This document shows, piece by piece, positions 12,539-63,046 of a stretch of DNA of 64,000 nt. The first letter of the stretch is position 1; every line of letters begins with the position of its first letter. The stretch is from NCBI GenBank assembly GCA_016713275.1, contig JADJPL010000028.1, forward strand, positions 194,278-258,277, in the 5' to 3' direction. A program made the translations under genes and the position numbers. The notes under the pieces are model-generated. The model was not told the DNA's origin and did no database searches. It worked only from the letters and a program-made list of their open reading frames with translations. The DNA is from Haliscomenobacter sp. GTDB taxonomy: Bacteria; Bacteroidota; Bacteroidia; Chitinophagales; Saprospiraceae.

Positions 12539-12604
12539 TTTAGCCCTTGTTTTGATTTTTTTGTAATTTACACCCATAGTGATCTGGAATAATCGCATTT
12601 TATA

Positions 12605-12688
12605 GGGATCAGGGAGCAGAGGGGTTAGGGAGCAGGGAGCAAGAAGCGCCTGCTCCCTAATCCCTGCTCCCTAACCCCTACTCCCTAA
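12605..12688. repeat. Imperfect hairpin built from AGGGAGC-type word repeats (G-run rich)
   Basis: Left arm GGGATCAGGGAGCAGAGGGGTTAGGGAGCAGGGAGCA and right arm TGCTCCCTAATCCCTGCTCCCTAACCCCTACTCCCTAA. Lies between the mrcA stop and the 2Fe-2S subunit start. Confidence 0.8.
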
Positions 12689-12702
12689 TTCATCTAACGC
12701 AT

Positions 12703-16222: not shown

Positions 16223-16515
16223 GCGATTTACGATGTACGATGTACGGGGTACGATATACGGTTTACGGTTTACGGTTTACGATGTACGGGGTACGGGGTA
16301 CGGGGTACGATGTGCGGGGTACGGTTTTCGGTTTACGAAGATAAAGCCAATTACCAACTTAAGCGATTCACACGAGCCCAGTTGTGGGAGACTTCGCTAC
16401 CTCGCTACTTCGTTTCCTCGTACTTCGTACTTCGTAAACCGTACATCGTACCCCGTAAACCGTACCCCGTAAACCGTACCCCGTAAACCGTAAACCGTAA
16501 ACCGTACATCGTACT
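16223..16515. repeat. ~290 bp imperfect palindrome made of GTACGGG / GTTTACG / GATGTACG word repeats
   Basis: Left arm 16223-16340 and right arm 16392-16515 are approximate reverse complements with the same word order. A ~50 bp unique centre separates them. The structure fills the whole recO-stop to corA-start spacer. Confidence 0.85.
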
Positions 16516-37244: not shown

Positions 37245-37348
37245 TGGTGCGTTTTATGGTGGGTGCAAAGGTAGGAAAAACTTCTTTTTTTCAAAAGAAC
37301 CCGTTTTAGAAAAATTAGCCCTGCTGTTTGATAAACCTAACCTTACCT

Positions 37349-37428
37349 CGCAACTTCGCAACCTCGCAACCTCGCAACCTCGCAACTTCGCAACCTCGCA
37401 ACTTCGCAACTTCGCAACTTCGCAACTT
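37349..37428. repeat. Tandem octamer repeat (CGCAACYT) x10
   Basis: Ten contiguous 8-mers, CGCAACTT or CGCAACCT, end exactly at the base before the ldcA stop codon (37429-37431). No inverted partner nearby. Confidence 0.95.
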
Positions 37429-39146: not shown

Positions 39147-41054
39147 ATGTCGAAAGGGAATTATACCGAGGATAACATTCGTTCGCTCGATTGGAGAGAG
39201 CACATCCGCCTTCGCCCCGGGATGTATATCGGGAAGCTTGGCGACGGCGCTTCCAGCGACGATGGGATATACGTGCTGATCAAAGAAGTCATCGACAATG
39301 CAGTCGACGAGTTTGTCATGGGCTATGGCCGCGAGATCCTTATTAAAATTGATGACGAAGGCGCCGAAATCCGGGATTTTGGCCGGGGAATTCCCCTCGG
39401 CAAAGTGATTGATTGCGTTTCCAGAATCAATACCGGGGGCAAATACGACTCCAAGGCCTTCAAGAAATCAGTCGGCCTCAACGGGGTCGGAACCAAAGCG
39501 GTCAACGCCTTGTCTTCCTACTTTCTGGTAAAAGCCATTCGCGACGGGGAGATGAAAGTGGCCGAGTTCAAACAGGGCGAACTGATCAAGGACCATAAGA
39601 TCCAAAAGTCCGACGAACCCAACGGCACGGTGGTGCGGTTCCGCCCCGACGATACGGTATTCCGCAATTTCCGCTTCCGGAAGGAACACCTGGAGGCCCA
39701 GCTTTGGAACTATGCCTTTCTGAATGCAGGACTCAAACTCAACTATAACGGCATGGTCATCCAGTCCAAAAACGGACTGCTGGACCTTCTCGACCGCAGG
39801 ACCCGCAACGAAGTCCTGCGGTATCCGATCATTCACATGAAAGGGGAGGATGTGGAAATCGCTATGAGCCACGGCAACCACTACGGGGAACAATACTACT
39901 CCTTCGTCAACGGCCAGAACACCACGCAGGGCGGAACCCATCTGAGCGCCTTCAAAGACGCCGTGGCGAAAACGGTACAGGAGTTCTACAAAAAACTCGA
40001 CCGCAAAGACATCCTGGCTTCCATCGTGGCTGCGGTTTCCATCCGGGTCGAAGAACCGGTGTTCGAATCCCAGACCAAAACCAAGCTGGGCTCCACCCAC
40101 ATGGCCCCGGAAGGGGAAAGCATCCGCACGTTTCTCGGCAATTTCGTCAAAAAACACCTCGACAACTACCTTCATACCCACCCGGATGTCGCCAAGGCTC
40201 TGGAAAAACGAATTCTCCAATCGGAGCGCGAACGCAAAGAAATCGCCGATATCCAGAAACTTGCCAACCAGCGGGCCAAAAAAGCCAACCTCCACAACAA
40301 AAAACTCCGGGATTGCCGCTTGCACTTCTGCGACCCGCCCCGGAAAACAGCCGAAGAACTCCGCCATGCCACCACCCTGTTTATCACCGAGGGGGATTCT
40401 GCCAGCGGCTCCATCACCAAATCGCGCGATGTGCAGACGCAGGCGGTGTTCAGCCTTCGGGGCAAGCCGCTCAACTGTTTCGGACTAACAAAAAAAGTGG
40501 TCTACGAAAACGAGGAATTCAACCTCCTTCAGCACGCCCTGAACATCGAAGATGGGCTGGAGGACCTGCGCTACAACCACATCGTCATCGCCACGGATGC
40601 CGATGTCGATGGAATGCATATCCGCCTCCTGCTCCTCACCTTCTTCCTCCAGTTTTTTCCCGAACTGGTCCGGGCCGGCCACTTGTATATCCTGGATACC
40701 CCGCTCTTCCGCGTTCGGGATAAAAACCAAACCTTTTATTGTTATAGCGAAACGGAAAAGCAAGAGGCGATAAAAAAACTGCGGGGCAAACCGGAAATCA
40801 CCCGGTTTAAAGGGCTTGGTGAAATCTCCCCCAACGAATTTGGCCTGTTCATCGGGGAACAAATCCGTCTGGAACCCGTACTGATCAACGATAGCACCGA
40901 CCTTGACGAAGTACTTGGGTACTACATGGGCAAAAATACCCCTGAACGCCAGGACTTTATCATCGGCAATCTCCGGATCGAAAAGGATACCACCCGGGAG
41001 GAAGAACCGGTGAACGAACCGGCGGCGATGGAGGAAGCCGTTGAGGAGATGTAG
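39147..41054 (+). CDS. parE: DNA topoisomerase IV subunit B
   Basis: GHKL ATPase N-box ([12 protein letters not shown]), Toprim EGDSASGS and DADVDGMHI. 635 aa. A separate, longer gyrB is present at 51963. Confidence 0.85.
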
Positions 41055-41109
41055 AGGATGTTGAGGATGTAAAGGATTAATCTACATCCTCTACATCCTT
41101 TACCTCCTC
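41043..41109. repeat. Hairpin of GGATGTARA word repeats spanning the parE stop codon
   Basis: Left arm GAGGAGATGTAGAGGATGTTGAGGATGTAAAGGAT, loop TAAT, right arm CTACATCCTCTACATCCTTTACCTCCTC. The parE stop TAG (41052-41054) lies in the left arm. Confidence 0.85.
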
Positions 41110-41343
41110 TCCCTCGCTCTCCTGCCTTTTTGTCCCTTTCGGGCATTTTTTTCGGCGGCAGGCCGCTTTTTTGTCAGGCGTTTTTTCGTGGCACGGAACT
41201 TGCCTGATCTAATGGACGCGGTTTCTCAGGAATGAATGACACGCTGTCAGAGGGTTTTCTCGTTTCGTATTTCAGGAGATGCTTTTTTAGAGGAACCGAT
41301 TTACCTGCATCCGCCTGGCCATTGCAAACTGATCAATATCATT

Positions 41344-43743
41344 ATGTTCGAAGAATATTTTTCCAACCGGGAATTTGAGGAGGAAGGGGATTTTTTGCCA
41401 ATGCTTTCTATGGACGGGGAGGAGGATTTTAAGCTTCAGAAACCATACCCCGACATGCTGCCTATCCTGGCGTTAAAGAATACGGTGCTGTTTCCCGGGA
41501 TCGTCATTCCGATTACGGTAGGCAGGGATAAGTCTATCCGGGCGATCCAAAAAGCGTACGAAACGACCCGCCTGATCGGGGTTCTTTCGCAACGCGATCT
41601 GGAAGTGGAAAACCCGGGCGCTGAAGACCTGTACGCGGTAGGGTGCGTCGCCAAAGTATTGAAGTTGCTGCGCATGCCGGATGGGACCACTACCGCTATT
41701 TTGCGGGGCCAAAGCCGGTTTCGGCTAGGCGATCTGGTCCAGGACCTTCCCTACATGCAGGGCAAGGTGTATATCCTGGAGCATACTGCTCCCAAGGATC
41801 AGCTGGAATTCGAAGCCTTGATCTCCACGATTCTCGACCTTGCCAAGAAGATCGTGGAACTGTCGCCCAACATCCCGTCGGAAGCGATTGCCATGTTGCG
41901 CAGCATCAACGAGCCGGATTTTCTGCTCAATTTCATCGCCTCCAACCTGGCGGTCAAAATTGAGATGAAACAGTTTGTTCTGGAAATCGACGACCTCAGA
42001 GAAAAAGCCCATTTCATTCTCCGGGAGATGAATACCCAGCTTCAATTGCTGGAACTCAAGGATCAGATTGAAATGAAGGTCAGGGGCGACCTCGAAAAAC
42101 AGCAGCGGGATTACTTCCTGAACCAGCAGCTGAAAACGATCCAGGAAGAACTCGGCCATAACCCGCAAGAGGAAGAGGCCGAATCGCTGGTGGCGCGCGC
42201 CGCGAAGAAAAAATGGCCCGATAACGCCCGCGATCATTTCCAGCGCGAGCTTGGGCGCCTTCGCCGAATGAATCCCCAGGTTGCCGAGTACTCTATGCAG
42301 ATGAGTTACCTCGAACTCATGCTCGACCTCCCCTGGAAAGAGTATACACAGGATAAGTTCAATCTTAAAAAAGTGCGCCGGGTGCTCGATCAGGACCACT
42401 TCGGTCTGGAAAAAGTAAAGGACCGGATTCTGGAGCATCTGGCGGTGCTGCATTTGAAAGGGGACATGAAAGCCCCCATCCTCTGCCTGGTGGGTCCTCC
42501 CGGGGTCGGAAAAACGTCGCTGGGGCGCTCGATCGCCCGAGCGCTCGGACGGAAGTTCGTGCGCATGTCGCTGGGCGGGCTCCACGATGAGAGCGAGATC
42601 CGCGGGCATCGCAAAACCTATATCGGCGCGCTTCCCGGGCGTATCCTGCAATCGCTCAAACGCGGCGGCTCGGGCAACCCGGTCTTCGTACTGGACGAAA
42701 TTGATAAAGTAGGCCGCGACTTTCGGGGAGATCCCTCCTCTGCCCTGCTCGAAGTGCTGGACCCCGAGCAGAATACTACGTTTTACGATAACTACCTCGA
42801 GTTGGAATACGATTTGTCTAAAGTGCTGTTCATTGCCACCGCCAACTCGTTGTCTACCATCCAGCCTGCATTGCTCGACCGGATGGAGATCATCGAGATC
42901 AGCGGATATTCTTTGGAGGAAAAAATCGAGATCGCCAAGCGCCATCTGGTAAGCGAGCAGTTGGAAGAACACGGACTGAAACCCGAACACGCCAAATTCA
43001 GCTCGAAAGTGCTGAAAAAACTGATCCAGGATTATACCCGGGAATCGGGGGTGCGCGCCCTCAGCCGCCAAATTGGGGCTGTCATGCGCCGTATTGCCCG
43101 CGATGTGGCCATGGAAGAACCTTTCGATCCCAATCTGCAACCCGGCGATCTGGAAAAAATCCTGGGCCCGGCAGTGTTCCCGTTTGAGATCTACCAGGAG
43201 GCTCAAGCACCTGGTGTAGCGGTCGGATTGGCCTGGACCAACGTGGGCGGAGAAATCCTGTTCGTCGAATCCAGCCTCAGCAAAGGATCGGGCCGCATGA
43301 CCCTCACCGGCAACCTCGGCGAAGTGATGAAGGAGTCGGCCTCAACCGCCCTGAGTTATATCAAAGCCCATTGCGAGGAGTTGGGTATCGATCAGGAAAA
43401 AGTCGAAAAAAGCGATATTCATATCCATATCCCCGAGGGCGCTATCCCAAAGGACGGCCCCTCTGCGGGAGTTACCATGCTCACCGCGCTCACTTCGTTG
43501 TTCACCGGTAAACCGGTAAAACCGTATATCGCCATGACCGGCGAGATCACCCTCCGGGGCAAAGTGCTTCCGGTGGGTGGGATCAAGGAGAAAATCCTCG
43601 CCGCCAAACGCGCCGGCATGAAGGAGATTATCCTCAGTAAATTCAACCGGAAACACGTAGAAGAAATCAATCCGGGCTACCTCGGCAACCTCCGTTTCCA
43701 CTACGTGGACACCATGAAGGAGGTGATTCAACACGCGGTTTAG
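41344..43743 (+). CDS. lon: ATP-dependent Lon protease
   Basis: LON N-domain ([23 protein letters not shown]), Walker [10 protein letters not shown], catalytic [11 protein letters not shown] and [14 protein letters not shown]. Start at the internal ATG 41344. Confidence 0.92.
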
Positions 43744-43750
43744 ACCAGGA

Positions 43751-43988
43751 ACGGTAGACGGTGGACGGTAGACGGTGGACGGTGGACGGTGGACGGTGGA
43801 CGGTGCAAAAAGACCTTTACCGACTGGACCAAACAAAAAAACTGTCTTAATTTAGCAAATTAAGGCCAATCAATTTGTTAAATTAATCCGATTGTCTTTT
43901 TGAATAGCTCCTCCCCGTCCCTCGTCTACCGTCCCTCGTCCCCCGTCTACCGTCCCCCGTCTACCGTACCGTCTACCGTCTACCGTCT
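43751..43988. repeat. Long inverted pair of GGTGGACG / CCGTCYMC word repeats with a ~105 bp unique centre
   Basis: Left arm 43751-43805 is (ACGGTAGACGGTGGACGG...). Right arm 43911-43988 is (CTCCCCGTCCCTCGTCTACCGTCC...). Begins 8 nt after the lon stop and includes the stop codon of the convergent DUF2807-like gene. Confidence 0.85.
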
Positions 43989-44670
43989 AAATCCTGCCTT
44001 GCCGGACTTCCCCTCCGAGGATGCTCTTGACGTATTTGGTTTGGGGATCGCCATGATAAATGATCTCGCCGCCAGTGTTGGCGGAAACTTCCAGGTGCTC
44101 GGTGGCGTGGACTTCGGCCCGGCCACCCGTGTTCGCCCGGACATAGACGCGTTTGGAGGTCAGCCCCGCCCCGAAAAACTGGCCTCCGGTGGCTGCGGTG
44201 CAGTCGAGATTCTCCGAGGCGCCATCGAGATAAAGCTGGCCGCCCTCCATTGCACTGGCTTCCAATGCGTTGGCTTTTACTTTGAGCCGGAGTTGGGCGC
44301 CGCTTCCAGCCCTGGCTTCCAATTGATCTCCCTGTAGTTCGGTGTCGCAACTCACCGACGAGCCGGCATTGGCCCGGATTTCGCGCAGCTTGGTATAGGT
44401 GACGTAGGCTTTGATCACCTCGTTTTTGTACAAAAAGCTGTTCAGCGAAATCAGCCGCAACGTCCCCTGGCTCACTTTGACGGTGATCTCGTCCTGGGGA
44501 ATTCCGTCGATGTAGAGCACTACTTTCTCTTTTTCCCCGGGTTCGAGTATGACCTGGATATTGCCTGAAACCAGAAGAGCGTCGAATGTTTCCACCTGGA
44601 ATTCTTTCTGACTCCACAAAGGATGTACGAAGAAACCCAGGACCGCAGCGATTAAGATGACCTTTTTCAT
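43987..44670 (-). CDS. DUF2807/head GIN domain-like secreted protein
   Basis: 227 aa with a signal peptide and repetitive beta-helix-like pattern (GNIQVILEPGEKEKVVLY.., GSGAQLRLKVKANALEASAMEGGQLYL). Confidence 0.6.
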   Translation of the reverse strand: MKKVILIAAVLGFFVHPLWSQKEFQVETFDALLVSGNIQVILEPGEKEKVVLYIDGIPQDEITVKVSQGTLRLISLNSFLYKNEVIKAYVTYTKLREIRANAGSSVSCDTELQGDQLEARAGSGAQLRLKVKANALEASAMEGGQLYLDGASENLDCTAATGGQFFGAGLTSKRVYVRANTGGRAEVHATEHLEVSANTGGEIIYHGDPQTKYVKSILGGEVRQGRI

Positions 44671-54930: not shown

Positions 54931-55035
54931 CTGTAGCTCGGAATTGCATTCCGAGATGTTCACCGGAATTGCATTCCGGGAAGGTCCACAAGAATTGCAT
55001 TCCACGGAAGGTCCACAAGAATTGTATTCCGGACA
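54931..55035. repeat. Cluster of four GGAAT-N3-ATTCC mini-hairpins (~26 bp period); the first two form the double-hairpin element also found at 58626-58683 and 58924-58981
   Basis: CTCGGAATTGCATTCCGAG, CCGGAATTGCATTCCGG, then two copies of GGAAGGTCCACAAGAATTG(C/T)ATTCC. Fills the ddl-stop to LRR-gene-stop spacer. Confidence 0.85.
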
Positions 55036-55037
55036 CA

Positions 55038-56956
55038 CTACCGTTTTTCCCCATACTCCTTCCACGCCTCCACAATCCCGGCATCCAGCCCCGTTCCTTC
55101 CGTCAGCCGTTCCATTTGGCGGCGCAGCGCGGCGGGATCCATCTCCAAATGCAAGGGGAGGGATCTGCTGAGGGCTTTCTGATCTCCGAAAGGCAAATGC
55201 TGCCGCAATAACCGGCGGAGCTCCGCCCTCAAACCGGGGTCGGGGCATAGCTTCCAGGCCAGGAACAAATCGGTGCGCAGGCGCGAAGGCAACCCGCCGC
55301 CCTGAATAAAGGAGATGGCCAGCCGGAGGAAACTGGTGTCCCGGCTGCGCAACATCCGCTGGAGCCGGTCTGTTTGTTCAGGGTTTTCCTCCGCCTGCAG
55401 GTACCGGGCCTCTTCCCTGGCCAGGTAAAACTCCAGTATCGATTGATCCAAAACCCCCGGGGACGGGGTTATTTCGGCGCGTTCGGGATAGGGCGGATCG
55501 CCGATGACGAGATGGGTAGGGGCATCCCCCTTTGCCGCCATCCGAAGCCCGCACGACTCCAGCCGCTTTTTCCACAAGCCCAGGGGAACACCTCCGGGAC
55601 GGCCAAACCATCCGATTGCGTGACCGGCCTGAAGGCCGGAAGCGGGAAAGCGGGTGATCAACCAACCGGTCAGGGCGCGGCGTAAGGAAGGGATCGGAAG
55701 GGAAAGCGCATGCAGTGCCCGATCCAAAGGAAGGGTGCATTCTGCCTCCGCGCCCGCTTTTTCGATGCGGTCCAACGCAACGAGTTCTTCGGGGCCAAAC
55801 CCCGCCTGCCGTCCTGCGGCAATGAGCTTATGAAGCCTGCGCCAACCGGCTGCAGGCAGCACACCGGTAAGGGTTTTCAAGGCCGGGAAATGCATCAGCA
55901 GACGGGTATCCTGAACCGGCCCTGTGGGATACCCTTTCCAGATAAGTTGTTCCAGCCGGGGTAGTTGCGCCAGCAACGGAGGAATTTCCGGGATTTGGGT
56001 ATGCGAGACGTCCAGTGTGCGAAGCCGCGCCAGGCGAATAAAGGATTCCGGGAGCGCTTCAATCGCCGTTTTGGACACATCCAGCGTGCGCAGGCTTTCG
56101 GGAAGCGGAGGAAGGCGGCGCAACGGATTTCCCGCGAGGTTGAGGGCGCTCAGAGCCAGCATGCGGGAAAGCGCTTCCGGAAGTTCGTGCAGTTGATTGT
56201 TGCGAAGGCTGAGTGCGTCGAGGACCGGCAGGTCAGCCAGGAACTCCGGCAGCCGGGTCAGGGCGTTGCCGTCCAGCTTCCATTGGCGGAGTTGGCGGAG
56301 TTGGCCGAGGGCTTCGGGCAAGGCTTCGAGCCGGTTTTGAGAAAGATCCAGATGGCGAAGCTGGGTCAGGGCCCCCCAATGACCGGGAATTTCAGCGATC
56401 CGGTTGCGGCGGAGATCCAAAACCTCCAACCCTGTCGGCAACCTATTGGATGCAGCAACTTCAGCGATCCGGTTATGCGCCAGTTGCAGCGCGCGCAAGC
56501 GGGGGCGTTTTCCAGCCCGGAGGGGAAGGCGGCGAGCGCGTTTTTCTCCAGGTTCAGGGATTCGAGCTTCCCCCATTGGACCTTTTCCAGGGCGCCCGTT
56601 TTGATCCGGTTTCCGGAAAGATCGAGTTTCTTTAAGGCCCGGCAGGCTGACAGCACGCCGGGCAGCGCACGAAACCCGCAACGGGAAAGATAGACTTCTT
56701 CCAGCACGGGAAGGCGCTCCAGGGCCACCGGAAGCTCCCGAAGCGGATTGCAGGACAAGCGCAGGATGCGCAAACCAGTCAGCAGGGCAACCGCCTCCGG
56801 TACCTGCCCGATCTGATTGTTTTCCAAATCCAGCACCTCCAGGTTGGGCAGCAACCATACCTCCTCCGGTACCTCGCGCAGGCCCAGCCCATGGAGGTAG
56901 AGTTCGGTGGCCGTGCCGCCTTGTTGGAGCGCTTCGCGGATGGAATATGCGCGCAT
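55038..56956 (-). pseudogene. Leucine-rich-repeat protein with a ~330 aa C-terminal domain of unknown function; frameshifted in a homopolymer
   Basis: ORF 56366-56956 (LRRs: LPNLEVLDLENNQIGQVP..) and ORF 55038-56858 join if the G5 run at 56501-56505 is read as G6. The result is ..FPSGLENAPRLRALQLAHNRIAEV.., about 14 consecutive LRRs. Confidence 0.75.
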
Positions 56957-56973: not shown

Positions 56974-57139
56974 AGGATGTGGAGGATGTGGAAGATGTAA
57001 AGGATGTAGAGGATGTAAAGGATGTAGAGGATGTAGAGGATGTAGAGGATGTGTGGCCCCGGGTTAAAGCTCGCCGTCTCCCGTCCCCCGTCTCCCGTCT
57101 CCCGTCTCCCGTCTCCCGTCCACCGTCCCCCGTTCACCG
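56974..57139. repeat. Adjacent word-repeat blocks: (GGATGTRRA)n then (CCGTCTCC/CCGTCCCC)n
   Basis: 56974-57055 is GGATGTGGAGGATGTGGAAGATGTAAAGGATGTAGAGG... and 57075-57139 is CCGTCTCCCGTCCCCCGTCTCCCGTCTCC.... Lies between the LRR-gene start and the DUF3667-like gene stop. Confidence 0.9.
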
Positions 57140-57140
57140 T

Positions 57141-57866
57141 TCAGAGTGCGAGGCCAATTAAAATAAGCACAAGGAATAGTTGAAGAAAAAAGAACAGGAT
57201 TACCCCAGCCGTTTGCAGGAGCGCTTCCCATTGATCTTTGCCTTTGCCAAAAACGTTATACACCATCCAAAACATGGCCAGGTATACGACTGGATTGAAC
57301 AGCAGGACCGGCGCTTGTAGCGCAAAAAAGCCAATTAACCCCGCCAGGGTGGCCTGACCAATAAAGAAGGCGCTGATGGTCACATGCTCGGCCAGGTTGT
57401 ATTGGCCAAAAAACAGCTTGGTGGAAGTGCCCAGGCAGCCAATCGTGAAAATCCAAACGTATTTGAAATAGACCCGGAGGAAGGTTCCGGCCTTATACCC
57501 AATGGAATAAGCAGGGGAATCCGGTCCGTCAGGGCCGGAGGAAAAATCTACGAGCGAGTCCGCGATCAGGAAAATCGAGATGGAAAGGAGCAGGAAGGAA
57601 AACGGATTAAAAATCCCCTTCCTTTTGCCCCGAATATAGCTGGTAATGAGGTAATGGGGATTGATGGTCAGGTACTTCAGATTGAACAGGAGCCCTTTGT
57701 CCATATTGGTAAGGGTCGAAAAGAAATCCGTCGCAATGGAACGAAACGTAATCCGTCCAACGGCGGCCTGTTCCCCGCAATTCGGGCAAAATTTTTGGTC
57801 GTGTTCGTGGGCACAAGAAATACAAGTCATCTGCTGGGTGTTGTTGCATGCGCAATAGGGGAGCAT
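57141..57866 (-). CDS. DUF3667-like zinc-ribbon membrane protein
   Basis: N-terminal CxxC...CxxC ribbon (CISCAHEHDQKFCPNCGE) followed by about 5 TM helices. Start at Met 57866 or 57830; the ORF upstream of that translates word repeats and is not credible. Confidence 0.65.
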   Translation of the reverse strand: MLPYCACNNTQQMTCISCAHEHDQKFCPNCGEQAAVGRITFRSIATDFFSTLTNMDKGLLFNLKYLTINPHYLITSYIRGKRKGIFNPFSFLLLSISIFLIADSLVDFSSGPDGPDSPAYSIGYKAGTFLRVYFKYVWIFTIGCLGTSTKLFFGQYNLAEHVTISAFFIGQATLAGLIGFFALQAPVLLFNPVVYLAMFWMVYNVFGKGKDQWEALLQTAGVILFFFLQLFLVLILIGLAL

Positions 57867-57961
57867 CCCTGTTTTCCAGGCACATCTCCAGAAACAGGGA
57901 TGCACCTGACGATAAAAGTAATCATTTTCCAGGGGGCAGGCCACTGTCTTGCCGTCTCGCT

Positions 57962-59355
57962 GTTGCTTGTTGTCTGAACACGATTTGCAGGATGGAAGGA
58001 TGTAGAGGATTTGCAGAATGTAGAGGATGTAAAGGATGTAAAGGATGTAAGGGTTTTGGTCTCTCCGTCCCCGTCCCCCGTCCCCCGTCCCCGTCTCTGT
58101 TGTGCGTAGACTTCCGTCTACGCTTCGGTTCAATCTTCAGATTGCGCGTATTTACTGCCATTGGGGCATTGCTGCGTTGTCTGAACTGTGATTTGCAGGA
58201 TTAGGGGATGGCCATGATGGTGGGGGGCTAGGGCTTAAGGCAAGGGTTTTGGGCTGTCGTCTTACTGTCTCTCCGTCTCCCGTCCCCCGTCTCCCCTCCC
58301 CGTCCCCCGTCCCCGTCTACCGTCCCCCCGTCCCCCGTCTACCGTCTCTGTTGTGCGTAGACTTCCGTCTACGCTTCGGTTCAATCTTCAGATTGCGCGT
58401 ATTTACTGCCATTGGGGCATTGCTGCGTTGTCTGAACTGTGATTTGCAGGATTAAGGGATGGCCATGATGGTGGGTGCTAGGGCGTAAGGCTTAAGGCGC
58501 GAGGTTTGAGGTTTTGGTCTGTCGTCTTACTGTCGACCGTCCACCGTCCACCCTCCACCGTCTCACCGTCTGCCGTCTGCCGTTGCTTGTTGTCTGAACA
58601 CGATTTGCAGGATTTAAGGGATGGCCAGGATGTAGCTCGGATTTTCAATCCGAGACTGTTGACCGGAATGGTATTCCGGGAAGGGCACCGTGCAGGCGTC
58701 TCTCCGTCTACCGTCGACCGTCTCACCGTCTGCCGTTGCTTGTTGTCTGAACTGTGATTTGCAGGATTAAGAGATGGCCATGATGGGGGGCTAGGGCGTA
58801 AGGCGTAAGGCGCGAGGTTTGAGGGTTTGGTCTGTCGTCTTACTGTCGACCGTCCACCGTCTCACCGTCTCCCGTCTGCCGTTGCTTGTTGTCTGAACAC
58901 GATTTTCAGGATTAAGGGATGGACAGGATGTAGCTCGGATTTTCAATCCGAGACTGTTGACCGGAATGGTATTCCGGGAAGCGCTCTGTTCGCCGTCCCG
59001 CAATTAGCGGGATCAGATTTCGGCGAACAGAGGCGGCAGACCAAAACCTTTGCGCCTTGCGCCTTAAACCCTGCGCCTTTACCCTCCCTATCCCCCCCAT
59101 CCCAAAATCCCCCCAAATCCTGGTTCAGACAAAAAGCAACGGGAGGCGGGAAACGCCGGTCAGGGGACCGGCGAATAGTTCCGCACGAAATCTGAGGATT
59201 TCGGCGAACAGGAGAGACGGTGGACGGTGGACGGTGGACGGTGGACGGTGGACGGTGGACGGTGGACGGAGACCAAAACCTTACATCCATCTTACATCCT
59301 CTACAAAAATCGTGTTCAGACAAAAGCAACGCCCCAATCCCCGTAACTTCGTACT
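57962..59355. repeat. ORF-free mosaic repeat locus with 8 copies of a ~30 nt head motif (GTTGCTTGTTGTCTGAACACGATTTGCAGGAT)
   Basis: Heads on the plus strand at 57962, 58171, 58422, 58582, 58735 and 58881. Reverse copies end at 59140 and 59330. A 113 bp perfect direct repeat occurs at 58091-58203 and 58342-58454. Word blocks and double-hairpin elements are interleaved throughout. Confidence 0.9.
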
Positions 59356-61155
59356 TCAAACCTCGATCCCCATCTCCGCCATCAACTGCGTCGCGTTGAA
59401 GCTTTGGCTGACGCCCTTTTTCAGTTGGTAGTCGAACACGAGCCGGCCATCCTGGAGTTGCACGTCGATATACCGGTTTTCGATATGACCCTGGCTTTCG
59501 GCTTCGAGGGAGGCGAGCTCCAGGTCGTGGGTGGCGATGAGGCCGGCGCTTTGGAGGCGGATGAGCTGGCGGATCAGCGCTGCGGCGCCTTGGTGGCGGT
59601 CGCGGGAGTTGGTGCCTTTGAGGATTTCGTCGAGGAGAAAAAATACGGGCATGGGGCCGTCTTGACTGGCCTGGGCGGTTTCGATCAGGGTTTTGAGGCG
59701 GCGCAGTTCGGCGTAGAACGAAGAGGCGTTTTCGGACAGCGCGTCCTGGGTGCGCATGCTGGTGAACACCTGCAGCGGAGGCAGTTCCATCGCTTGCGCG
59801 CACACTGGCGCGCCGCTTTGCGCCAGAACGATATTAACGCCCGCGCTGCGCAGGAACGTGCTCTTGCCGGCCATGTTGGAGCCGGTAATGAGCTTGAGGT
59901 GGGCCCTGACGGGCATACCGAGGTCGTTGCCCACGCGCCGGCCGGGGGGGATGAGCGGATGGGCAAGGCCTTTGGACTGGAAGTCCAACCCGGTTTCCAC
60001 CAGGGGAAAGGCCCACCCGGGGTGGTTGAAATGCAGGTTGCCCAGGGAGGAAAGCGCCTCGAATTGCGCCAGGGTGTGAAACCATCCGGCCAGCACGGGC
60101 TTCCATTCGGTTTTCCAGTTTTCCAGCCGGTAGACCCATTGCAGATCCCAGAGGCCGAACAGGTTGAGCAGGATAGCAAAGGGGTTGTACCGCACATCCA
60201 GCTGGTGGATCAGGTAGCCCAATTGCTTTAACGCCCGGGAGGCGGAGATCCGCGGGGTGTGGATCGCCGTTTGCAGCGTTTGCAGGAGCGGAGCCTCAAA
60301 CCGCTGCGTTTCGATGTGCCGGAGCAACGCGGCATAGGCTTGCAGCATGGCGCCCGTGCGGGCCGTTGCCTCGTGGATGCCTTGTACGCGCTTGGCGTAA
60401 CGGCCGGTGAGCAACGCAGCAGGGAGCAGGCAGGTTGCGGAGACCCACCAGGACTCCCCGCGAAAGAGGGTGACGGCAAAGGCGGTTGCCGCTAGCACGG
60501 GCAAAAGGATAAGCGTCCAGAACATGGCTTTCCGGAAGCGAAACACCGGCGCCTGTTCCAGCCAGAGCTGGAGCTGTTCCTGATGCCGGAGGCTGGATGG
60601 GTTTGCCATGCCGAGCGCCCGAAAGGCGTGGCGCCAATCCGGCAGGCGCCCCAGTTCCCGGACCGCTTCCTGGCGGGCAGCGATGACGGGTGGCGTCGCC
60701 GGATGCAGCAAATAAGCGGCCAGCGTTTCTTTGCCCTGAGGCGTAGTCGTGCGATTGATGAACTGGAACACCGAATAGGGGCCAAACAGATCCAGGTCGC
60801 CCGAGTAAGGGTGCAGCAGGTCGCGGAATTCGGCGCCGTCTTCAAATACCTGAAACTGGTAGCCTGCGGCCGCTGCTTCCTCCTGGTTTACCTGAGCGAG
60901 TAGTGTCTGGTGAGCTCTCCGCTCCGCTATCTGGTTGTGCCGCCGCACCAGATAAAAAAATCCCGCCAGAAAGACCACCCCCCACAGGCCGGTAAGCACC
61001 GGCGACCAGGACCACAGAAACACCCCCAGAAACACCCCCGCCAGAAACGCCGCCAGACGCCCGACCGCCAGGCGGTTGTACGCCGCTCCTAACGTTCGGG
61101 CTTTTGCGGTATGCTGTTGATGCCGCTCCTGGTAAAACCGGATCAGATCGTTCAT
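59356..61155 (-). CDS. MutS-related ATPase (domain V only, membrane-anchored; no mismatch-binding domain)
   Basis: Walker A GSNMAGKSTFLRS, FLLDEILKGTN and ATHDLEL. N-terminal TM helices (LAAFLAGVFLGVFLWSW..VVFLAGFFYLV). Start at MNDLIRFYQ (61155). Confidence 0.8.
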   Translation of the reverse strand: MNDLIRFYQERHQQHTAKARTLGAAYNRLAVGRLAAFLAGVFLGVFLWSWSPVLTGLWGVVFLAGFFYLVRRHNQIAERRAHQTLLAQVNQEEAAAAGYQFQVFEDGAEFRDLLHPYSGDLDLFGPYSVFQFINRTTTPQGKETLAAYLLHPATPPVIAARQEAVRELGRLPDWRHAFRALGMANPSSLRHQEQLQLWLEQAPVFRFRKAMFWTLILLPVLAATAFAVTLFRGESWWVSATCLLPAALLTGRYAKRVQGIHEATARTGAMLQAYAALLRHIETQRFEAPLLQTLQTAIHTPRISASRALKQLGYLIHQLDVRYNPFAILLNLFGLWDLQWVYRLENWKTEWKPVLAGWFHTLAQFEALSSLGNLHFNHPGWAFPLVETGLDFQSKGLAHPLIPPGRRVGNDLGMPVRAHLKLITGSNMAGKSTFLRSAGVNIVLAQSGAPVCAQAMELPPLQVFTSMRTQDALSENASSFYAELRRLKTLIETAQASQDGPMPVFFLLDEILKGTNSRDRHQGAAALIRQLIRLQSAGLIATHDLELASLEAESQGHIENRYIDVQLQDGRLVFDYQLKKGVSQSFNATQLMAEMGIEV

Positions 61156-61482
61156 GTGGTTTTTTGCCTTAAAAATACTAGAAGTTACAAAACTCCCCCC
61201 CCATGGTTTGGGCGAGCAAAAAGAACATTCGCCGAAGACAGGGTAGAAACATTTGAACCTTGAATCCTCTCCATCCTTTACATCCCCTCCATCCTCTACC
61301 CCTTTCACGTCCTCCCCAAAAATCATGTTCAGTCAACAAACTAAGGCGAACGGCCGCCGTTCACTCCTCAAACCCTTTGAAAAAGAAGCAGACAGGAGCA
61401 TGTTCGCTAAATCGGGAACGGATGGGTGCAGGTTTGCCATTTTAGTTTGCGAATTTTCGCTAAATCCGCTACCTTTGGCCCG

Positions 61483-62967: not shown

Positions 62968-63046
62968 TGGTTTTCCCGTCCCCCGTCCCCCGTCCCCCGT
63001 CCCCCGTCCCCCGTCAACCGTCCCCCGTCAACCGTCAACCGTCTCT
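62968..63046. repeat. (CCGTCCCC)n word-repeat block filling an entire convergent intergenic spacer
   Basis: GGTTTTCCCGTCCCCCGTCCCCCGTCCCCCGTCCCCCGTCCCCCGTCAACCGTCCCCCGTCAACCGTCAACCGTCTCT runs from the base after the regulator stop to the base before the GH127 stop. Confidence 0.95.

Follow-up and report, generated by a model that had tools for sequence, protein, structure and literature searches.

Probable GxxExxY cassette ends make up a non-coding repeat cluster in Haliscomenobacter

We analyzed a 64,000-nt stretch of Haliscomenobacter sp. DNA (contig JADJPL010000028.1 of GCA_016713275.1, positions 194,278 to 258,277; hereafter the window) that contains a mosaic, non-coding repeat locus. Each module of this locus opens with a conserved sequence, the head, whose core unit is about 45 nt long: TTGTCTGAAC followed by four GGAT/GATT words about 8-9 nt apart. 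In other bacteria the same sequence brackets small genes for GxxExxY proteins (TIGR04256/PF13366), which are assigned to the PD-(D/E)XK fold, and the head is shown to be identical with the terminal inverted repeat of these cassettes. We think it probable that the window locus is a cluster of eight gene-less cassette ends, with a ninth, diverged copy nearby, and that this cluster has grown locally. The original prediction, made from the window sequence, had described a MITE-like element (MITE, miniature inverted-repeat transposable element) that was not catalogued; both points stand, but the cross-phylum spread of the family and the role of the head as the inverted repeat of GxxExxY cassettes had been missed.

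The link between head and gene is seen in L133, a metagenome contig (loci are cited by our L numbers) with a layout like that of the window, in which three forward and three reverse heads lie within 1.4 kb. There, a head at 627 is followed by a GxxExxY gene (734-1141, 135 codons; TIGR04256, 5e-41; PF13366 (PDDEXK_3), 1.5e-39) and then by an inverted head (1211-1170). Another head in this contig precedes an 18-codon stump of a GxxExxY gene. Homologues of the protein are numerous (at least 8000 candidates were scored). Identity is 75-85% for the best 120, whose source names are those of Ignavibacteriales, Sphingobacteriales and Clostridia metagenome-assembled genomes (MAGs), mostly on short contigs.

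We compared the DNA around seven GxxExxY homologues and inspected the flanking sequence of representative loci. The 5' head there ends 0-50 nt ahead of the GxxExxY ATG, and the last ~9 codons of the gene together with its stop codon form the inverted 3' head. Read in frame, the 3' head is thus shown to overlap the coding sequence of the C-terminal tail: GGC AAT CCT GTT AAT CAA ACA AAT CCC TAA AATCCTGTTCAGACAA encodes ...GNPVNQTNP and the stop, and the protein tail encoded by the head has the general form ...PTGNPVNQxNP. Tails of the [NH]P-x-N type end 83 of the 120 top homologues. Coding for a protein tail explains the 9-nt (three-codon) period of the words. In one homologue (P0081, L166), expansion of the words has produced an (NPx)n tail and a 5' array of seven words, a direct model for the (AGGATGTAG)n arrays of the window.

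Comparison of two cassettes places the ends of the unit. L148 (1165-1635) and L151 (1161-1632) are 81% identical over 472 nt and similar nowhere else. In L148 the cassette lies between a Bro-N gene and hsdM, and in L151 its neighbours are a KilA-N gene on one side and, on the other, an unannotated open reading frame (ORF) of 151 aa preceding an HNH gene. Because homology stops at the heads in these unrelated contexts, the transferred unit is taken to be head, gene and head, ~470 bp in all. L166 gives identical boundaries and also shows 5'-to-3' head complementarity. The alignments thereby show a moving unit that ends at heads; actual movement of cassettes between sites is suggested by these homology boundaries and by the distribution of the family. 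A hidden Markov model (HMM) built from Adhaeribacter and Mucilaginibacter heads only recovered full-length 3' heads at the gene ends in L148, L150, L151, L156, L162 and L166 (E 1e-8 to 8e-6), and 5' heads in five of the six loci (E 1e-4 to 5e-2).

Residues G26, E29, Y32, D68, E78 and K80 are invariant in 27 GxxExxY sequences, and this invariant D/E/K set is the catalytic pattern expected of PD-(D/E)XK enzymes. The protein is under selection and appears to be an active nuclease. A sequence search of the Protein Data Bank (PDB) with GxxExxY returned nothing. PDDEXK_3 has been classified as of 'Unknown' function with 'multiple transfers' (PMC3424549), and the few mentions of 'GxxExxY' that we found in the full-text literature do not concern mobility. 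More distant GxxExxY genes (35-42% identity; L100 1850-2560 and L169 1440-1930) are bracketed by inverted (CACAGAGnn)n repeats, so word-built inverted ends seem general for the family, and the sequences suggest that subfamilies go with their own end types.

Several other features of the cassettes were noted. Those in L148 and L150-L162 are wedged between restriction-modification and defence-island genes, among them KilA-N/Bro-N genes (PADLOC candidate PDC-S13, 4e-139), MmeI-type methyltransferases, SNF2/PLD helicase and HNH genes. The ATG of the downstream gene directly abuts the end of the cassette head, immediately after GTTCAGACA. Gene-less inverted head pairs lie in frame within the hsdM ORF in L148 (1968-2090; 123 nt, 41 codons) and in L162 (1652-1771), each beside a cassette; the in-frame pair adds an Asn/Asp/Gly-rich loop and contains no stop codon. 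A possible duplication of AATG(C/A) at cassette junctions was seen in only two independent events and is not claimed.

The head is widely dispersed. In a logo of 227 copies it reads TTGTCTGAAC-CAG-GATTTTCAG-GATTAnaG-GATTtnCAg-GAT, with the GGAT words at +10, +19, +27 and +36, beginning 2-3 nt after TTGTCTGAAC, and information drops abruptly 5' of TTG and beyond ~45 nt. When the pattern TTGTCTGAACN{2,3}GATTTKCAGGAT was scanned against one genome per species, it matched at least 119 genome stretches in widely separated phyla. Among the matches listed, Poribacteria are the most frequent; others listed come from Desulfobacterota (Desulfococcaceae, Desulfonema, Desulfatirhabdium), Desulfuromonadales, Thiothrix and another gammaproteobacterial MAG, Fibrobacterota, Vulcanimicrobiota, and, within Bacteroidota, Adhaeribacter, Pontibacter, Hanamia, Ginsengibacter, Mucilaginibacter, Mariniphaga, Aureispira, Saprospiraceae and Haliscomenobacter. 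The head is thus not local. With a loose definition of the head, 220 of 229 copies (~96%) fall outside ORFs of at least 130 aa. Heads form 58 inverted pairs, spaced 70-450 nt and with varied interiors, and several subfamilies occur per genome, as expected for a dispersed inverted-repeat family of the MITE-like kind.

For the six forward heads of the window, an HMM of heads from other phyla gives E 1e-8 to 4e-5, and the Adhaeribacter and Mucilaginibacter HMM gives E 1.6e-11 to 2e-3. Individual values include 1.1e-6 (module A) and 1.6e-11 (module D) with the latter model and 3e-8 for module B with a Poribacteria-trained one; of the reverse heads, module G gives 1.2e-4 (at 59132, other-phyla HMM) and module H gives 4.6e-4 (at 59323, Adhaeribacter/Mucilaginibacter HMM), and the diverged solo head scores weakly (E = 0.06 at 61335). 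Heads of the window lineage carry a GTTGCTTG prefix and are usually adjoined by CCGTCNC heptamer arrays. A Haliscomenobacter MAG (L106) and the metagenome contigs L132 and L133 share window modules at 82-94% identity, namely the 75-nt tail joined to a TGT head, the double hairpin and the 9-mers, despite having coding DNA with no blastn similarity to the window. The module D unit is present in L106 and in L133.

Searches of existing catalogues returned little. With gathering cut-offs, the Rfam scan proposed with the original prediction found a tRNA and nothing else in the window, and no match in 18 loci; relaxing the limit to E 10 brought up only chance-level matches to eukaryotic long non-coding RNAs. 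The exact words GGATTTTCAGGAT, GATTTGCAGGAT and ATCCTGAAAATCC did not occur in a full-text literature search of 8 million papers. Carriage by phages is unsupported, as a head search of 2.9 million viral contigs gave 0 matches and tblastn of GxxExxY against phages gave none; on plasmids, we found only a diverged head in Dolichospermum (a cyanobacterium) and six GxxExxY matches.

Other candidate relationships were dropped. Neisseria DNA-uptake-sequence oligonucleotides matched GTCTGAACC, but the shared GTCTGAA core was judged coincidental because copy density and word structure differ. A CTGAA/TTCAG stem inside the head is broken in G variants and hence is not a structural feature of it, and a GGGTTTTGG linker is present in just a few Poribacteria copies and does not characterize the family. 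DnaA boxes, the CsrA GGA motif, the integron attC core, hix sites and the ends of Tn3, IS21 and Tn7 each fit the head over a few bases only. Two side observations concern Poribacteria. Heads in this phylum (L017, L021, L027, L044, L087, L116) are often directly preceded by GGGTGTGTAAAGTTTTTG(G/T)CA, which resembles the end of a second repeat family. In a Poribacteria MAG, L098 (4192-7899, - strand) holds an uninterrupted 1235-aa ORF with FtsZ/tubulin, PHP and DNA polymerase III alpha domains, which could result from a gene fusion, from read-through or from misassembly, our ORF calling being crude.

In the window itself, all nine head copies described in the original prediction were found at their coordinates with the motif in place (Table 1), including the 8-nt internal deletion in the reverse head at 59117-59140. 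The core pattern is confined to this locus and to the diverged copy at ~61315-61342, compared with 0.00-0.02 matches expected from dinucleotide-preserving shuffles of the window. The order of parts within a module also held up: head, GGAT word block, linker GGTTTTGGTCT, CCGTCNC heptamers and tail, the last being one of three hairpin types. The locus was said to be free of ORFs over 1.4 kb, and it is indeed non-coding; the most likely start of the DUF3667 gene is 57866 or 57830, so the ORF-free stretch runs from ~57867 to 59355, ~1.49 kb, slightly more than had been given. It extends between the stop codon of a MutS-V-related gene (start at 61155) and the start of the DUF3667 gene, both on the - strand; an HTH/M78 protein is also encoded nearby. 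The diverged solo head lies ~160 nt upstream of the MutS-V-related gene start, and a head-less relative of the modules sits between the DUF3667 stop codon and the start of a leucine-rich-repeat (LRR) gene. Tail hairpins fold far better than shuffled sequences (z -4.2, -5.5, -7.4), and modules F and G together (58881-59140) fold head-to-head into one long hairpin (dG -65.6, z -8.3). By comparison, the part made of head, words and heptamers has less structure than shuffled sequence (z +1.1 to +1.8). Strand asymmetry is extreme, with 4% C in the word blocks and 59-64% C in the heptamer blocks. The words of module G are partly degraded to G-runs.

Table 1. Repeat modules and related features, in positions of the window
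Feature	Position	Strand	Description
Module A	57962-58170	+	Head 57962-57993, conserved core from 57970, variant ACG
Module A words	to ~58056	+	GGATGTAGA-type 9-mers, then linker GGGTTTTGGTCT
Module A heptamers	58062-58097	+	CCGTCCC
Module A tail	58098-58170	+	75-nt tail with hairpin GCGTAGAC-TTCC-GTCTACGC
Module B	58171-58421	+	Head 58171-58201, variant TGT; word block; linker GGGTTTTGGGCTGTCGTCTTACTGTC
Module B array and tail		+	Long CCGTCNC array 58262-58348; second copy of 75-nt tail 58342-58421
Module C	58422-58581	+	Head variant TGT; GGCGTAAGG-type word block; linker GGTTTTGGTCTGTCGTCTTACTGTC
Module C heptamers		+	CCGTCCA/CCGTCTG, continuous with next head
Module D	58582-58734	+	Head variant ACG; GGAT words; double hairpin; then heptamers
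Module D double hairpin	58636-58680		CTCGGAT..ATCCGAG / CCGGAAT..ATTCCGG; z -5.5
Module E	58735-58880	+	Head variant TGT; near-copy of module C
Module F	58881-59030	+	Head variant ACG, TTTTC; double hairpin
Module F central hairpin	58984-59031		CTCTGTTCGCCG...CGGCGAACAGAG, common to reverse module G; dG -19.7, z -7.4
Module G	59031-59140	-	Reverse head 59140 to 59117, variant CAG; word block; linker GGTTTTGGTCTGCCGC
Module H	59141-59330	-	Reverse head 59330 to 59304; two GGATGTAAG words; linker GGTTTTGGTCTC
Module H array and tail	59216-59269		(CCGTCCA) x7.7, reads GACGGTG on +; hairpin tail
Diverged solo head	61258-61342	-	Head 61342 to 61315, then four 9-mer words
Head-less module relative	56974-57140	+	(AGGATGTAG) x8.8, linker, (CCGTCTC) x8.6

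Repeats within the cluster record how it has changed. The duplicate at 58091-58203 and 58342-58454 is perfect over exactly 113 bp, as had been reported, with zero extension on either side; the repeat finder places it within a 134-nt pair of 99% identity. Modules C and E are 96% identical (family D3) and modules D and F 95% (family D7), families D2, D3, D4 and D7 all being found within the locus. The internal repeat units are a 251-nt unit and a ~300-nt two-module unit, and a 153-nt period is detected by Tandem Repeats Finder (TRF).

Searching for exact matches to the DUF3667 protein led to orthologous loci in GCA_963852005.1 (L145) and on a wastewater metagenome contig (L146), with flanks 98-99% identical to the window. 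Both carry the same locus with the same module order, and these two independent assemblies of the same species indicate that the window locus is not an assembly artefact, a concern raised with the original prediction. Each has four fewer 9-mers (36 nt) in module A than the window. In L146 there are also three fewer heptamers (21 nt) in the GACGGTG array of module H, and ~250-290 nt are missing that correspond to one copy of the duplicated unit (the tail of module A and most of module B), with breakpoints inside the duplicated segments. One caveat here is that L146 is a short-read assembly, so the absent module could also be an assembly collapse. L145 has a swapped word block in module B and differs by a few bases in the reverse head of module G, where the word GGACAGGAT is intact (compared with GGGGGGGAT in the window). 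The strain-level differences seen by aligning the three are thus confined to loss of whole modules between direct repeats, copy number of 9-mers and heptamers, and small substitutions. Together with the internal duplicates, they indicate that the cluster grew mainly by local tandem duplication and not by mutual insertion of its units, which had been the favoured route in the original prediction.

Other contigs of the same species touch on these repeats. Short-read metagenome contigs of 1-3 kb end at or inside arrays (window 40778-44316, L001-L003; window 57123-58203, L147), and the repeats appear to fragment assemblies of this organism. Next to the cluster, the LRR gene (55038-56956) appears in the window as two overlapping ORFs of 606 and 196 aa, and in L145 and L146 as a single 639-aa gene; the split may reflect a frameshift or a sequencing error in the window.

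We propose the following scheme. A compact cassette of ~470 bp, made of a head, a GxxExxY gene and an inverted head, would be bounded by TTGTCTGAAC...GTTCAGACAA, and cassettes together with many more derived, gene-less head pairs would be scattered through the intergenic DNA of many phyla. The GxxExxY nuclease may recognize or cleave heads in trans and so spread both cassettes and gene-less pairs, by a logic resembling that of REP-associated tyrosine transposases (RAYTs) with their REPINs (hairpin-forming doublets of repetitive extragenic palindromic (REP) sequences), or that of a free-standing homing nuclease. Inner GGAT words could expand into 9-mer arrays. Once in place, a cluster would grow as whole modules are duplicated in tandem or recombine unequally and as the 7- and 9-nt units slip. 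The window locus would then be a decayed nest of cassette ends from which the gene has been lost, and L133, with one intact and one truncated GxxExxY gene, may represent an earlier stage. The cluster itself is presumably selfish DNA, with at most side effects on transcript ends; such effects are conceivable given its position downstream of a gene stop and its many hairpins and C-rich, G-poor tracts.

A broader proposal falls, in our estimate, somewhat short of an even chance. GxxExxY proteins may be the mobility nucleases of unrecognized, cross-phylum elements of ~470 bp, with 45-nt word-built inverted repeats around a 125-codon gene, a repeat that doubles as the C-terminal tail, and no target-site duplication. 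Such elements would slot between operon genes, shed gene-less pairs (including stop-free in-frame insertions) and seed 9-mer microsatellites from their words, distant subfamilies using CACAGAG instead. The cassette family is apparently both cross-phylum and undescribed.

Several observations weigh against the cassette interpretation. The 64-kb window contains no GxxExxY gene, so an active partner in this organism is unproven. In ~0.9 Mb of DNA around heads, mostly from Poribacteria, a GxxExxY gene was found only in L100, where the brackets are different word repeats; the link of head to gene comes from Bacteroidota loci and from Ignavibacteriales-type and Clostridia-labelled ones. Significance is only moderate for matches to the 5' head, and the HMM detected no 5' head in L156. 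Neither a filled-versus-empty pair of orthologous sites nor a target-site duplication was found. The AlphaFold model of GxxExxY is poor (predicted local distance difference test score, pLDDT, 62), with only chance matches from Foldseek against the PDB, and we know of no biochemical activity for PF13366. Heptamer arrays, finally, also occur without heads throughout the window and may be independent and merely co-localized.

These arrays bear on the strongest of the alternatives, which we regard as unlikely though worth weighing: that heads, hairpins and C-rich arrays are elements serving the host, akin to REP sequences and bacterial interspersed mosaic elements (BIMEs), and are kept for ending or stabilizing transcripts or for binding nucleoid or topology proteins. 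Possible roles include hairpin barriers, Rho loading on C-rich, G-poor tracts and RNase III sites, with the GxxExxY gene carried along only now and then or domesticated as a partner. Heptamer arrays are common in this genome well beyond the cluster. Outside the locus, TRF places arrays in eight other intergenic regions (12604-12689, 16229-16514, 37345-37428, 41048-41120, 43751-43989, 54932-55030, 56974-57140 and 62975-63043), with units of 7, 8, 9, 14, 16 and 27 nt. Arrays occupy 9 of the ~19 intergenic regions in the window that hold a gene 3' end, compared with 1 of 12 divergent regions, and REP sequences are biased likewise (PMC3733652). Inverted arrays yield strong hairpins right after stop codons, as at 41040-41125 (array 41048-41120; dG -20, z -6.8), and the arms at 16229-16514 are ~100 nt each. 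The strand asymmetry of the word and heptamer blocks and their lack of structure would suit Rho loading, and the 82-94% identity of repeats between genomes without blastn-detectable coding similarity also speaks for a maintained function.

Against such a function, heads across phyla show no preference for gene 3' ends, 57% of their flanks being gene starts, and no strong orientation bias toward neighbouring genes. The arms of pairs often differ in variable positions and in word number, from which it follows that pairing is not the conserved feature of heads. A simple scan of the locus detected no terminator-like sites, strains differ freely in the length of arrays and in whole modules, and host function leaves unexplained the homology boundaries at heads around a nuclease gene. 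Heptamers of the window lineage border heads on their outer side (...CCGTCTGCCGTTGCTTGTTGTCTGAAC is an example) and could be either a preferred landing site of heads or an outgrowth of the head terminus. Two further observations concern the arrays. A 16-nt repeat, ACCTCGCAACTTCGCA, present in ~5 copies at 37345-37428, adjoins a tRNA gene and recurs with ~90% identity at L106 7709-7755. Heptamers of the CCCCGT type (58065-58092 and 62975-63010) give at least four G-tracts on the - strand and hence canonical G-quadruplex potential.

An ordinary nest of MITEs, with heads as the ends of a classical insertion sequence of the DDE-transposase type and modules inserted into each other, seems to us improbable. 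Inverted pairs with shared ends, differing interiors and several subfamilies per genome would be expected of MITEs, the ends begin with TG, and in L162 a head pair occupies the position of a cassette's 3' head. However, target-site duplications were absent at all 58 inverted pairs (offsets 0, -1 and -2 checked), and neither a transposase nor any other protein was found to recur next to heads, in 824 neighbouring ORFs or in the small ORFs close by, GxxExxY being the only gene seen bounded by heads. Moreover, the structure of the cluster and the differences between strains are those of tandem duplication and slippage. These data argue against classical DDE-type behaviour.

We give very little credence to an array of small-RNA genes with each head a Bacteroidota promoter, which the original prediction had offered as an alternative: the head does contain TTG and TTTG motifs, the 5' head lies 0-100 nt upstream of GxxExxY start codons, and BrickBuilt, a MITE of Porphyromonas gingivalis with an internal minisatellite, has bidirectionally active promoter elements (PMC4596501), but on direct reading the spacing misfits -33 TTTG / 19-21 nt / -7 TAnnTTTG (ACGATTTG lacks TA, the nearest upstream TTG is ~14 nt away and the cross-phylum consensus there is CAGGATTTTCAGG), the head is kept in phyla with sigma-70 promoters, it shows no strong orientation bias toward genes, Rfam offers no match even at E up to 10, module bodies are low-complexity, unstructured and variable in length between strains, and a sigma-70 scan, which does not cover Bacteroidota promoters, found no promoter-like site.

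If the cassette interpretation is correct, a very large protein family whose function is listed as 'Unknown' would gain a role, and the few enzyme classes known to drive small bacterial repeats would be joined by one based on the PD-(D/E)XK fold. It would also explain a 45-nt non-coding motif that is nearly unchanged in Poribacteria, Desulfobacterota, Bacteroidota and others, provide an origin for some intergenic 9-mer arrays (and, more speculatively, for heptamer arrays), and make sense of the contig breaks that short-read metagenomes of these organisms show. Since GxxExxY is small, has a defined substrate and has hosts in culture (Adhaeribacter, Pontibacter, Hanamia), the idea is directly testable by experiment.

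Several known systems share features with the heads and their cassettes. A CRISPR array was considered and set aside: module interiors consist of repeats or of low-complexity sequence, heads are spaced 146-251 nt apart, and heads occur in both orientations. Like classical MITEs, head pairs are small, intergenic and non-coding with terminal inverted repeats, as in the 58 inverted pairs and the fold of 58881 with 59140; unlike them, the family lacks both target-site duplications and a related DDE insertion sequence. BrickBuilt likewise consists of leader and tail units with internal tandem repeats (PMC4596501). It differs in being species-restricted, and in its 23-nt repeat, and no sequence similarity to it was found.

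The heptamer arrays of the window are tandem 7-nt repeats confined to intergenic DNA, with a patchy cross-phylum occurrence like that of the cyanobacterial short tandemly repeated repetitive (STRR) arrays and of the TAACTGA arrays in Beggiatoaceae, Cyanobacteria and five Bacteroidetes (PMC4679880). Their sequences (CCGTCNC, TACGGTG and related) differ from the published ones, and they lie mostly downstream of genes, whereas STRR and TAACTGA arrays lie just upstream of start codons. Elhai et al. reportedly found, in 2008, small dispersed repeats of 21-27 nt inserted in Nostoc heptamer arrays; the head is longer than these and is tied to a gene cassette. Rickettsia palindromic elements have a stop-free reading frame and are tolerated inside genes. 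The 123-nt head pair in hsdM (L148, L162) is similar in this respect, and its stop-free frame means that insertion inside a gene can be tolerated. Unlike those elements, in-gene head copies occur in one gene family only and not in the window, almost all heads being intergenic.

Free-standing homing endonucleases and 23S rRNA intervening sequences with small ORFs also place a selfish nuclease gene between operon genes, with a downstream ATG abutting the end, and the inverted ends of a cassette could pair in RNA. The cassette differs in having long inverted repeats and in spawning gene-less copies at many unrelated sites, and we identified no cognate empty target site for it.

The closest known logic is that of the REP/REPIN-RAYT and BIME systems of Enterobacteria and Pseudomonas. 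As in those systems, head units are short, non-coding and mostly inverted doublets without target-site duplications, dispersed intergenically and gathered into mosaic clusters with alternating orientation and conserved linkers. The window cluster has the architecture of a BIME, with six forward and then two reverse modules, shared linkers and three tail types (L133 having three and three), and the likeness is one of architecture, not homology. The bias of REP sequences for regions downstream of genes (PMC3733652; PMC3116915) is matched by the window arrays. The head, though, is a 10-nt terminus with 9-nt-periodic words, not a palindrome with a GTAG/CGTC tag: its word region lacks self-structure, and although GTAG and CGTC occur in 9-mers and heptamers and GCGTAGAC..GTCTACGC forms a tail hairpin, none of these is the conserved unit. 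In addition, the 3' head is partly coding, and the same head occurs across phyla, whereas REP sequences are largely lineage-specific. As in RAYT loci, the presumed enzyme gene is flanked by its own repeat in inverted orientation; the partner here is a GxxExxY protein of the PD-(D/E)XK fold in place of an HUH/Y1 transposase.

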